The notes under the pieces are model-generated. The model was not told where the DNA came from, ran no database searches, and saw only the letters and a list, made by a program, of their open reading frames with translations. Positions 35,885-37,731 of a stretch of 64,000 bases of DNA are shown here, piece by piece. The stretch is from an uncultured Clostridia bacterium (GTDB lineage: Bacteria > Bacillota > Clostridia > Christensenellales > Borkfalkiaceae), in NCBI GenBank assembly GCA_947631325.1, contig CANRKX010000001.1, positions 12,450-76,449 of the forward strand, written 5' to 3'. The position numbers were made by a program, and so were the translations under genes. Positions within the stretch are counted from its first letter, which is position 1. Each line of letters opens with the position of its first letter.

Positions 35885-37444
35885 TTAATTTTCTATTTTA
35901 GTGACAAAGTTTCCACTGAACATTTCAGATTTTTGATTTATCACTACATAATTTCCTTCTATTCCAAGGTTTGTAACGTATTCATTATCGTCAGATGACT
36001 TTTGGACTCTTACAGTGAATTCATTTACACCTTTATCGGTTATCTCCGCGACCTTAAATTCTCTAGCTTGGTTTATTCCGCCTACTCCATCGGTTGCAGC
36101 TCCGTTATCAATGAAAAGTCGTGTTGACCCTTCAGTCAAATTGTGTTCGCAAGCCCCAAAGATTGCTTCTACTAACGAATCTCTTGTACCTTGAATCGAT
36201 TTGGTATAACCAAAATTATAATCTCTATTATAGTTAGAAGCGGTTGATTTACTAATAGTTTCATTGATATTGTCTTTTGTAAGATTTTTTACATCTATTG
36301 AACTTGCAAGAGTGATAGTTCCAATTCCATAAACATAGTTGTCAGTTCCGCTTTCATAAGTCGCTGCAAATTTAATTTGATTGATTTGGTCACTTTCACC
36401 AAGATCCCATTTGGACTCTATCAATTTTTCTGCATTAAAGGCTTTACCAAATACAGTTTTACCAATTTGATTAAGGAATGTGTTGTTTAAAGCGGAGTAA
36501 ACTGTCTGAGCAACCTCTCCCTTGGTCAGATCTTCAACCTTTTCAATCTTGTCTGTCTCAGGATCTACTGGAGTTACTGGTGTGTCAGGGTCTTTTTCAG
36601 GATTGCTAGGGTCGTCAGGATCTTTTTCAGGATTGCTAGGGTCAACAGTAGGAGATTGCTTAAATGTTTCATCTGCAAGGCTATAGCTTGTTGAATAGAG
36701 TGTAGCTTGACCGTCTTGTTTTACAGCATAAGTTGCTGTCTCTTCATACGCGAAGACCTTGTTTGGATTGTCAAGATTTTGCATTAAGTTTTCTTTTGTG
36801 TTGTTATCAACGATTACCGAGATTTTGCCGGTCTTGTAAACTCCGTCTTTAAGGTATGTGAGTACAAATTCTCTTACATTGCCGCCGAGAGGGGAGAATT
36901 CAGATTCAGAGAATACCTTTAAGTCAGCATTCCCGATATTTGCAAGAGCAAACAATTTTGCCGATAAGTCAGCATTTTCCTTATTCTCTTTTGAGTCAAA
37001 TTCAAAGACCGTCGTCTTTTGTGTAGTATATTGAACGCTTTCTACCGAGCCGCTTACTATATCGTCCAAAACGACCGTCGGTGAAATGTTTGCCGTAACA
37101 ATATCGATTTTGCGCTTTGTATTGTCAATCTTGTATGTATATACCGCTGTTAAGGTACTTAACTCATTGTTTGAATTTGCACCTATCGAAACGGTTTCGG
37201 CGAGCAATTGCTTGTCGGAAGTTAAAGCCGAAAACTTTTCACGATAAAATTCAACCGCCTTGTCAGAATGGTCTTTTATAAAATCCGCAAAGGTTATGGG
37301 TTCTGTTCCCTCATCTTCTGACTCATTACCGCCGACGGGAGGGTTTACGTTTGTAGTTTCGTTATCCGAACAAGCAGAAAATGCGAACGCGCCGCTCAAT
37401 GCAACAAGTGCCGCTAAAATCAAAGTTAAAAGTTTTTTCTTCAT
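35885..37444 (-). CDS. Predicted lipoprotein of unknown function (two domains joined by a Pro/Asp-rich repeat linker)
   Basis: Signal peptide with lipobox MKKKLLTLILAALVALSGAFAFSAC. AAGGAG RBS precedes ATG 37444. Composition is strongly AT-shifted relative to its neighbours. I recognise no family. Confidence 0.8.
   Translation of the reverse strand: MKKKLLTLILAALVALSGAFAFSACSDNETTNVNPPVGGNESEDEGTEPITFADFIKDHSDKAVEFYREKFSALTSDKQLLAETVSIGANSNNELSTLTAVYTYKIDNTKRKIDIVTANISPTVVLDDIVSGSVESVQYTTQKTTVFEFDSKENKENADLSAKLFALANIGNADLKVFSESEFSPLGGNVREFVLTYLKDGVYKTGKISVIVDNNTKENLMQNLDNPNKVFAYEETATYAVKQDGQATLYSTSYSLADETFKQSPTVDPSNPEKDPDDPSNPEKDPDTPVTPVDPETDKIEKVEDLTKGEVAQTVYSALNNTFLNQIGKTVFGKAFNAEKLIESKWDLGESDQINQIKFAATYESGTDNYVYGIGTITLASSIDVKNLTKDNINETISKSTASNYNRDYNFGYTKSIQGTRDSLVEAIFGACEHNLTEGSTRLFIDNGAATDGVGGINQAREFKVAEITDKGVNEFTVRVQKSSDDNEYVTNLGIEGNYVVINQKSEMFSGNFVTKIEN
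36585..36644 (-). repeat. Tandem 2 x 30-bp in-frame repeat inside the lipoprotein gene
   Basis: tcagggtctttttcaggattgctagggtcg followed by tcaggatctttttcaggattgctagggtca (2 mismatches). It encodes DPSNPEKDPD twice. Confidence 0.9.
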
Positions 37445-37624
37445 GCATTTGCTCCTTTGTGCGGCGAAAAAAAAGTGTGCTCCCGAAAGAGCACACCGCA
37501 CGGTATCTCTTACGGCTACCACACCTACAAACCTAATCTCGAAAGAAAAAAATTAAATTCAAAAGAGATACACAATGCCAAGATTGTGTAATTCCTCAAG
37601 ATTAATTCAGTTTGTAAATGTGGT
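37445..37624 (-). ncRNA. Candidate structured 5' leader (riboswitch/attenuator) or small RNA upstream of the lipoprotein gene
   Basis: It lies downstream of a consensus promoter. Hairpin tacacaat/attgtgta (37590-37569) is followed by a T-rich run. A second hairpin gtgtgctc/gagcacac (37496-37475) is followed by T8 (37474-37467), ending about 10 nt before the RBS at 37457-37452. Confidence 0.45.
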
Positions 37625-37630
37625 GACTAA

Positions 37631-37659
37631 AATATATCACGCAAGAGAAAAATTGTCAA
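37631..37659 (-). promoter_or_regulatory. Near-consensus promoter driving the leader and lipoprotein gene
   Basis: On the minus strand: TTGACA (37659-37654), 17-nt spacer, TATATT (37636-37631), with TG at the extended -10 position. Confidence 0.6.
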
Positions 37660-37672
37660 GGGTAATGGGTTC

Positions 37673-37714
37673 AAAAAAAGTTGAAGGCGCGCGCGGAAGT
37701 TTTCCGCGCGCGCC
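37673..37714 (-). terminator. Terminator of the miaB-mutSL-miaA operon
   Basis: 13-bp GC stem ggcgcgcgcggaa/ttccgcgcgcgcc, followed on the minus strand by TTCAACTTTTTTT. It lies 18 nt after the stop at 37732. Confidence 0.75.
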
Positions 37715-37731
37715 CATTCTATATACAATAA

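Follow-up and report, generated by a model that had tools for sequence, protein, structure and literature searches.

A multi-copy structured leader RNA with a probable transcription-attenuation switch upstream of exported, mostly adhesin-like protein genes in rabbit-gut Clostridia

We analysed the region upstream of a lipoprotein gene in a 64-kb stretch of DNA (hereafter the window), where all of the features listed in Table 1 lie on the minus strand. The region begins behind a mutL-miaA-lyase operon, whose own terminator insulates the promoter described here from upstream transcription. The promoter itself, given in the preliminary description as TTGACA-17-TATATT with an extended -10 TG, was confirmed and matched 11 of the 12 consensus positions, with transcription predicted to start at about 37625/37624. 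The predicted leader is ~160 nt long from promoter to terminator and 186 nt in the form that was folded. A hairpin with a T8 run had also been placed about 10 nt before the RBS; the terminator held up (37497-37467), but its U-tract ends 8 nt from the RBS. With so short a gap, intact downstream genes need read-through. None of the RNA runs screened contained the stretch, and in four RNA libraries, matched by species label only, no reads fell on the leader locus.

The lipoprotein in the window had a signal peptide with the lipobox FSAC (Cys25). A Pfam search of it matched no domain, and among 5.8 billion proteins it fell into seven clusters, its own and six others. Its AF2 model (pLDDT 80) had two alpha/beta domains joined by a disordered linker, and a fold search with this model returned no meaningful PDB relative (TM <= 0.14).

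Table 1 Features of the leader locus, in order of predicted transcription.
Feature	Positions	Strand	Details
Terminator of the upstream mutL-miaA-lyase operon	37673..37715	-	Stem 37715-37685 (14 bp, 11 GC pairs) and T-run
Sigma-70-type promoter	37631..37659	-	11/12 consensus plus TG
Promoter parts		-	-35 TTGACA 37659-37654; 17-nt spacer; TG 37639-37638; -10 TATATT 37636-37631
P1 5' strand ACCACAUUUACAAACU	37609..37624	-	Pairs with 37533-37518, 16 bp; at predicted transcript 5' end
P1b 5' strand AAUCUUGA	37596..37603	-	Present in MFE; partner UCGAGAUU 37542-37535
P2 hairpin	37569..37590	-	UACACAAU 37590-37583, loop CUUGGC 37582-37577, AUUGUGUA 37576-37569
Near-invariant motif GGCAUUGUGUAUCUCU with seg1	37563..37579	-	Motif 37579-37564; seg1 GUAUCUCUU 37571-37563
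P1b 3' strand UCGAGAUU	37535..37542	-	Present in MFE
P1 3' strand GGUUUGUAGGUGUGGU	37518..37533	-	Pairs with 37624-37609
Antiterminator hairpin CC-GU-AAGAGAUACC-GUGC-GGUGU(G)CUCUU-UC-GG	37483..37515	-	RNAalifold consensus
seg2 and seg3		-	seg2 AAGAGAUACC 37511-37502; seg3 GGUGUGCUCUU 37497-37487
Outer helix bracketing the terminator	37459..37501	-	GUGCGG 37501-37496 with CCGCAC 37464-37459
Intrinsic terminator	37467..37497	-	Stem GGUGUGCUCU/GGAGCACACU 37497-37474, UUCG loop, U8 37474-37467
RBS and 519-aa lipoprotein gene	35885..37458	-	RBS AAAGGAG 37458-37452; ATG 37444

A scan of one genome per prokaryote species for the 23-nt core pattern GTGTGGTNNCCNNNNGAGATACC recovered 55 loci. Fully conserved flanks were found at 42 of them, all within 14 species-level 'Lapin' rabbit-gut Clostridia MAGs carrying one to seven each (up to seven or eight), and every one of these copies shared the promoter, P1, P2, the core, the terminator and the RBS. 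The 13 genome matches outside the Lapin MAGs, including Oscillibacter and Oscillospiraceae MAGs, and 29 metagenome matches had unrelated flanks and were dismissed as chance; ~70 matches are expected by chance for 17 specified bases in 6e11 bases. The family totals 43 distinct close copies in the 14 MAG species plus three diverged copies, and the window holds a single one. Each of the 43 distinct copies had a promoter score of 10-11/12 and the extended -10 TG, and without exception the first C of CCACA stood exactly 7 nt past the end of the -10 hexamer. Given this fixed spacing, the predicted 5' end of the transcript is the base of P1.

Exported proteins were encoded behind most copies. An RBS and an exported-protein gene followed 41 of the 43 copies, at 53-70 nt from the core to the start codon. 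About 34 of these 41 ORFs began with a lipoprotein signal peptide (lipobox Cys at 22-26); three further proteins opened with zinc ribbons, two had an N-terminal membrane anchor and one was Q/G/Y-rich. Pfam matches among the 41 proteins were led by the BspA-type leucine-rich repeats LRR_5 (21) and LRR_8 (19), with Listeria-Bacteroides repeats (5), DUF6273 (5) and collagen repeats (1) behind them. The ORF-less copies L039a and L063a both lay upstream of another leader copy, and L063a was followed directly by another promoter.

The 186-nt leader folded at -59.2 kcal/mol, compared with -40.0 +/- 4.1 for dinucleotide shuffles (z = -4.7; 0/200 shuffles as good). This fold is dominated by P1, a 16-bp stem that pairs the transcript's first nucleotides ACCACAUUUACAAACU with GGUUUGUAGGUGUGGU. 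The pairing and covariation statistics come from a 32-sequence alignment of family copies. P1 had compensatory changes in 8/16 pairs with 98% of cells paired, and its inner part occurred in >25 different sequences among the copies; P2 had compensatory changes in 3/7 pairs with 98.2% of cells paired, and the paired share for these stems lay at 97.5-98.5%. The observed covariation score was reached by 0/500 column shuffles, and slid controls dropped to 33-59% pairing. The P1 base has two U.G pairs, in columns 8 and 9, that were kept in 32/32 and 31/32 copies, and the covariance model R1 scored 103-209 bits in the sense direction and 17-39 bits in antisense. Since the opposite strand would have mismatched C.A in place of the U.G pairs and the R1 scores are far higher in sense than in antisense, the constraint acts on the RNA of this strand rather than on a DNA inverted repeat.

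The same observations bear on a switch at the level of DNA, in which the P1 repeat would flank an invertible segment and toggle the terminator by phase variation of the cwpV type. P1 does form a 16-20-bp inverted repeat around a 63-203-bp segment before surface-protein genes, and flipping that segment would make seg1, now complementary to seg2, read the same as seg2. However, owing to the two conserved U.G pairs the P1 arms always differ as DNA, a single orientation was seen in all 46 copies and in every independent assembly of the locus (L001-L003), and strand-switch joints were absent from the contigs of four DNA runs, in which rare variants would be missed. We regard inversion as very unlikely and treat P1 as an RNA helix. 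Surface-lipoprotein multigene families of Mycoplasma (vsp/vlp/vsa cassettes) likewise combine a conserved module of promoter, 5' UTR and signal peptide with divergent mature regions, but they switch by DNA inversion or repeat slippage, whereas each copy here had its own promoter, no inversion was seen, and the module encodes a predicted RNA switch.

Two elements of the preliminary description were reinterpreted. The pairing of AAUCUUGA with UCGAGAUU is a real helix, P1b, which extends the closing stem and whose counterparts in other copies (UGCAUCGAAA/UUUCGGUGCA and GUCAGCCAAA/UUUCGGCUGAC) changed in sequence and kept their complementarity, but it is not the switch. The first hairpin had been called terminator-like; it has an AU-rich stem, was not listed by a terminator scan, and is no terminator but the conserved sensor hairpin P2 with its seg1 tail. 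GGCA in or beside the P2 loop was retained in every lineage, including the long forms, L101, L012 and L063b. Long-form copies had extra hairpins inserted but always displayed (R)GCAUUGYGUAUCUC within a hairpin whose closing stem covaries. In the 5' domain, junctions were 63-203 nt long and highly variable in sequence, with optional hairpins. With regard to a metabolite-binding riboswitch, the strong covariation of P1 and P2 and the invariant GGCAUUGUGUAUCUC stand beside junctions of 63-203 nt, which are atypical of a small-molecule pocket and unlike most small-molecule aptamers. An additional element, 'seg0', in which GAAAUAC upstream of P2 would sequester seg1, was considered and dropped because most MFE folds paired only GUAU of seg1 and left CUCUU free.

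The RNAalifold consensus drew an antiterminator in place of the terminator, pairing 37515-37502 with 37497-37483, which is the 5' strand and loop of the terminator. This antiterminator had 99.5% of cells paired, a 1-nt bulge and a 2x2 loop as its only irregularities, and an energy of -15.7 kcal/mol in this leader. Its 5' strand has a second partner: AAGAGAUAC (seg2) is the exact complement of seg1 GUAUCUCUU in the 3' tail of P2, with 98.3% of cells paired. The leader can therefore be written as four segments, with seg1:seg2 as anti-antiterminator, seg2:seg3 as antiterminator and seg3:seg4 as terminator. Comparing terminator and antiterminator folds, a check raised in the preliminary description, gave mean energies over 43 copies of -16.9 kcal/mol for the terminator and -15.6 for the conserved antiterminator, with -11.5 for the seg1:seg2 duplex. 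Terminator and antiterminator stayed within ~1.3 kcal/mol of each other in the 43 copies, and in 43/43 the nascent transcript, as it stands before segment 4 has emerged, had P1 plus the antiterminator as its MFE. As in a generic terminator/antiterminator attenuator, a terminator lies between promoter and RBS together with a conserved, mutually exclusive antiterminator.

The terminator stem was paired in 100% of cells, with compensatory changes at two pairs. At one of these two positions, column 183, four copies carry A in place of G, and it is this base that bulges out of the antiterminator. Complementarity between GUGCGG and CCGCAC, offered earlier as the source of alternative folds, proved to be an outer helix around the terminator and not the switch. 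It was paired in 87% of cells without covariation in the main family, and was replaced by GCGGGC/GCCCGC in L101 and by UUGCG/CGCAA in L012. The outer helix is probably real and formed in the read-through mRNA, the only kind of transcript in which it can arise. The seg1:seg2 pairing crosses P1, so it would need either a pseudoknot with a 6-nt linker or the opening of P1, and lies beyond nested-structure folding.

The 1:2 / 2:3 / 3:4 layout directly upstream of a regulated gene is shared with trp/phe-type attenuators, and a trp/pheA-type attenuator, controlled by ribosomes on a leader peptide, would follow the same logic; there is also a weak similarity to Phe_leader (20.5 bits, threshold 55). 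Across 42 copies, however, no reading frame over seg1 had a consistent start or stop, and a Shine-Dalgarno sequence occurred in 0-1 copies per frame. A translated leader is thus extremely unlikely, and the element differs from the trp/phe type both in having no conserved leader ORF and in holding segment 1 inside a structured domain closed by P1. Attenuation by alternative RNA pairing, our preferred reading, has a parallel in the PyrR-dependent pyr attenuators of Bacillus, which share three nested alternative helices, an upstream anti-antiterminator that captures the 5' strand of the antiterminator, several copies per genome, a conserved recognition motif and the absence of a leader peptide. 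The leader here differs in having neither a PyrR binding motif nor an Rfam PyrR match, in preceding surface-protein genes and not pyrimidine biosynthesis, and in an anti-antiterminator that is long-range and crosses a closing stem of 16-20 bp.

The switch pairings seg1:seg2 and seg2:seg3 were almost invariant in the main family, and support for them comes from only four diverged variants. In L039b the terminator stem was changed to GGCGUAUCUC/GGGAUACGCC, and the new 5' strand (seg3 GUAUCUCUU) perfectly complements the unchanged seg2. L063b was without the ACCACA stem and paired seg1 AACCUUUUUGG with seg2 CCAAAAGGU, its antiterminator being AAGGUA:UGCCUU. The switch pairings were replaced by GUAUCCUU:AAGGGUAC and CUUAAAGGG:CCUUUAAG in L101, and by GUAUCCUC:GAGGGUAC and CGUUGAGG:CCUUAACG in L012. 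The nascent MFE of L063b, L101 and L012 was in each case P1 plus the antiterminator. In 5/5 sequence variants the best upstream partner of seg2 was the homologous seg1 site just 3' of the GGCA loop, though singly the seg1:seg2 energies were modest against shuffles (z = -0.9 to -2.4). R1 scored 45 bits for L063b (E ~1e-7), 29 bits for L101 (E ~4e-4) and a marginal 17 bits for L012. Four diverged lineages thus show the predicted dual complementarity of seg2 again in other sequences. An architecture-only scan of all retrieved loci found no further diverged leaders.

Orthologous loci whose proteins are ~50% identical were used to compare nucleotide identity along the locus, leaving out the near-identical pair L057/L010 (94% protein identity). 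Identity was 64-71% in the CDS and 59-74% in the unpaired junctions, compared with 82-92% in the expression platform and 73-97% in P2 plus seg1. The key blocks were nearly unchanged upstream of lipoprotein homologs at 43-55% protein identity, and the inner closing stem differed in sequence and was still complementary. Because the platform and P2 plus seg1 stand above the CDS and junctions, their conservation is not just a product of recent copying; gene conversion could be a partial cause of the near-identical platform among paralogs. A lack of conservation or covariation in relatives had been named in advance as grounds for refutation, and the conserved and covarying leader speaks clearly against it.

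These comparisons also bear on a simpler alternative, that the region is a constitutive cassette of strong promoter, 5' stabilising stem and partly leaky terminator that is common to a recently expanded family of surface-protein genes, is held uniform by duplication or gene conversion and does no signal-dependent switching. P1 begins at the predicted +1, as 5' stabilisers of mRNA are known to do; the promoter moves as one with the leader and the signal peptide; paralogs have a near-identical platform; and core k-mers were 20-100x as deep as the flanks in four rabbit-gut metagenomes. Yet the leader is conserved between species whose orthologous proteins are ~50% identical, with junctions that drift like CDS, and a stabiliser has no need of a terminator or of a segment whose dual complementarity is conserved. 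The balance of ~1.3 kcal/mol between terminator and antiterminator in 43 copies, and the rebuilding of the same logic in four lineages, also argue against a cassette of this kind, which we consider unlikely.

We give a similarly low probability to a stand-alone, trans-acting small RNA of ~150-160 nt, with the downstream gene expressed only by leaky read-through. The leader would suit such an RNA in that it runs complete from promoter to terminator, with a stable stem at its 5' end and a seed-like, conserved, single-stranded seg2 region between P1 and the terminator, and in having two copies, L039a and L063a, with no ORF behind them; the Rfam models it weakly resembles are those of sRNAs, but the terminator alone accounts for the similarity. 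The fixed distance before an RBS and exported-protein gene in 41/43 copies, on the other hand, suits an element acting in cis, and the 'seed' exactly complements two segments of its own transcript in every lineage, as a cis switch needs. No complementary target was found elsewhere in the 64-kb window, where a search with the sensor motif returned the motif itself only. Neither the small RNA nor the constitutive cassette explains the dual complementarity of seg2 and the balanced energies.

We therefore consider it likely that the region is a cis-acting transcription-attenuation leader, one member of an RNA family whose many copies would gate the expression of exported surface proteins, most of them adhesin-like. 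The attenuation reading in the preliminary description is supported by a conserved and covarying leader, the lack of a matching Rfam family, an antiterminator of terminator-like stability and the absence of a leader peptide. In the proposed mechanism, the strong promoter would start the transcript at the base of the long closing stem P1/P1b, which would enclose P2 with the invariant motif GGCAUUGUGUAUCUCU in its loop and 3' tail. Beyond P1, seg2 would have two mutually exclusive partners, seg3 and seg1. Pairing of seg2 with seg3 would form the antiterminator and allow read-through into the gene, and pairing of seg1 with seg2 would act as an anti-antiterminator, leaving seg3 to pair with seg4 as the terminator, so that transcription would stop 8 nt before the RBS. 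An effector, which may be a protein, a small molecule or an RNA, would act at the conserved P2/GGCA/seg1 region and decide whether seg1 captures seg2; this region is most likely the putative effector recognition site. The anatomy of the leader, its conservation and covariation, the balance of energies and the association with surface-protein genes are direct results; that termination is conditional is inferred, as are the sign of the regulation and the nature of the effector.

If this reading is right, much of the adhesin-like surface proteome of an uncultured gut Clostridia clade, comprising BspA-type LRR lipoproteins, Listeria-Bacteroides-repeat proteins and zinc-ribbon membrane proteins, would be under one shared RNA switch, and the effector would point to a signal controlling host or surface attachment. 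The leader would also be a natural example of a balanced three-helix attenuator in which the anti-antiterminator acts across a long closing stem, and a compact orphan regulatory RNA of ~160 nt with ~50 invariant nucleotides whose segments are mutable.

A more far-reaching version, to which we give little credence, is that the leader represents a new RNA sensor class co-ordinating the BspA-like adhesin lipoprotein repertoire, with cross-talk between copies. Because seg1, seg2 and seg3 are identical in all copies, abundant terminated or orphan leaders could act in trans. Terminated leaders and the orphans L039a and L063a could titrate a shared effector, or their seg1 could pair with seg2 of nascent transcripts elsewhere. 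Were this true, it would amount to an RNA-based dosage limit or mutual exclusion of surface antigens, a post-initiation analogue of antigenic-variation control.

We compared the leader with known RNA families using Rfam 15 (4227 models). Nothing but tRNAs reached the gathering threshold in the window or in 15 loci that included long forms and diverged copies; at E <= 10 the best matches were Phe_leader, as above, and sbrA with 23.3 bits against a threshold of 45, both mainly on the terminator. The preliminary description had likewise recognised no known riboswitch class, and this agrees with the lack of Rfam matches at threshold and with c-di-GMP-I/II and T-box models unmatched at E <= 10. A T-box leader was rejected because RF00230 gave no match at that cutoff, the antiterminator has only a 1-nt bulge and a 2x2 loop where a T-box would have a UGGN bulge, and the downstream genes encode surface proteins, not aaRS or amino-acid functions. 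The c-di-GMP-I/II riboswitches of Clostridioides difficile, which lie upstream of adhesin, pilin and cell-wall-protein genes, are also multi-copy, terminator-based leaders with a regulon of surface and adhesion genes in Clostridia, but RF01051 and RF01786 had no match at E <= 10 and the 5' domain of the leader here has highly variable junctions.

The closest published concept, by description, is the SLH motif riboswitch candidate. This is an orphan structured RNA upstream of S-layer-homology genes in Clostridia, Negativicutes and Synergistia, for which the authors proposed sensing of a cell-envelope-related signal (Stav et al. 2019, PMC6429828). Compared by description only, the two share an orphan structured RNA before surface-protein genes. 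They differ in that the leading Pfam families of the 41 proteins encoded behind the leader included no SLH domain, and the taxonomic range of the SLH motif is much wider (PMC6429828). Literature searches found no description of the leader element. We take the leader to be an undescribed multi-copy family of predicted structured RNAs, set apart from the SLH candidate by description only.

The 16-bp P1, the true antiterminator, the anti-antiterminator and the multi-copy, regulon-like nature of the leader had all been missed in the preliminary description. Plain short 5' UTRs were present at L097, L098 and L100, where the genes are homologous to that of the related lipoprotein P0007. The leader is therefore a module that can move, and this lipoprotein family does not depend on having it.

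The leader also heads the genes of large zinc-ribbon proteins at three loci (L015, L038 and L020), and therefore its regulon is not strictly one of lipoproteins. The N-termini of these three proteins consist of multiple zinc-ribbon motifs (MNKCPKCG...), with no signal peptide there. The lipoprotein of the window was predicted by AF2 (pLDDT 80) to fold into two similar helix-plus-beta-sheet domains, at residues of about 50-255 and 300-515, connected in the model by a disordered Pro/Asp/Thr linker (residues 260-297). The model had no structure match in the PDB (TM <= 0.14). Relatives at L005, L006, L008, L012, L097, and L100 shared a conserved gene of 166-290 aa 3' of the lipoprotein gene, which had no Pfam domain and no counterpart in the window.

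Features of the leader family and its gene neighborhoods (L-numbers, loci; suffix a, leader copy).
Feature	Location	Strand	Remarks
Leader-preceded lipoprotein gene	window 35885-37444	minus	no Pfam domain
Terminator of upstream operon	window 37685-37715	both score	13-14-bp GC-rich palindrome
Large zinc-ribbon protein gene behind same leader	L015:3641-6241		Pfam DZR and Zn_ribbon
Large zinc-ribbon protein gene behind same leader	L038:4969-6957		Pfam DZR and Zn_ribbon
Large zinc-ribbon protein gene behind same leader	L020:7191-8000		Pfam DZR and Zn_ribbon
ORF-less leader copy (L039a)	L039:4223-4415	minus	complete, promoter to terminator
ORF-less leader copy (L063a)	L063:7452-7627	minus	complete, promoter to terminator
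Terminator-containing leader directly 5' of pheS-like gene	L053:7250-7373	+	

Across the community, the leader element acts like a repeat and breaks up assemblies. In four rabbit-gut metagenomes (runs X1-X4), the k-mer depth of its core (window 37478-37525) was 20-100 times that of unique flanks, and breaks in Logan contigs fell at the core. Both ORF-less copies came from a single MAG, Lapin-027__bin80, and each was followed downstream by a second copy that did precede a gene. The ORF-less copies might serve as RNA decoys or sponges, or else be left over from duplication.

Long-form copies (e.g., L014:3305-3546) had in common an extra conserved element, UAUUUUUAUG, after which comes a small hairpin that covaries (CCC-UUUU-GGG or CUCU-UUUC-AGAG); short-form copies, including that of the window, were without this element. 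T-rich tails flanked the upstream operon's terminator on each side, and the palindrome received a terminator score on either strand. At L053, one family copy adjoined the terminator-containing leader of a pheS-like gene (sequence MDIHERIKEIEGR...); this leader is probably of the T-box or ribosomal-protein type.
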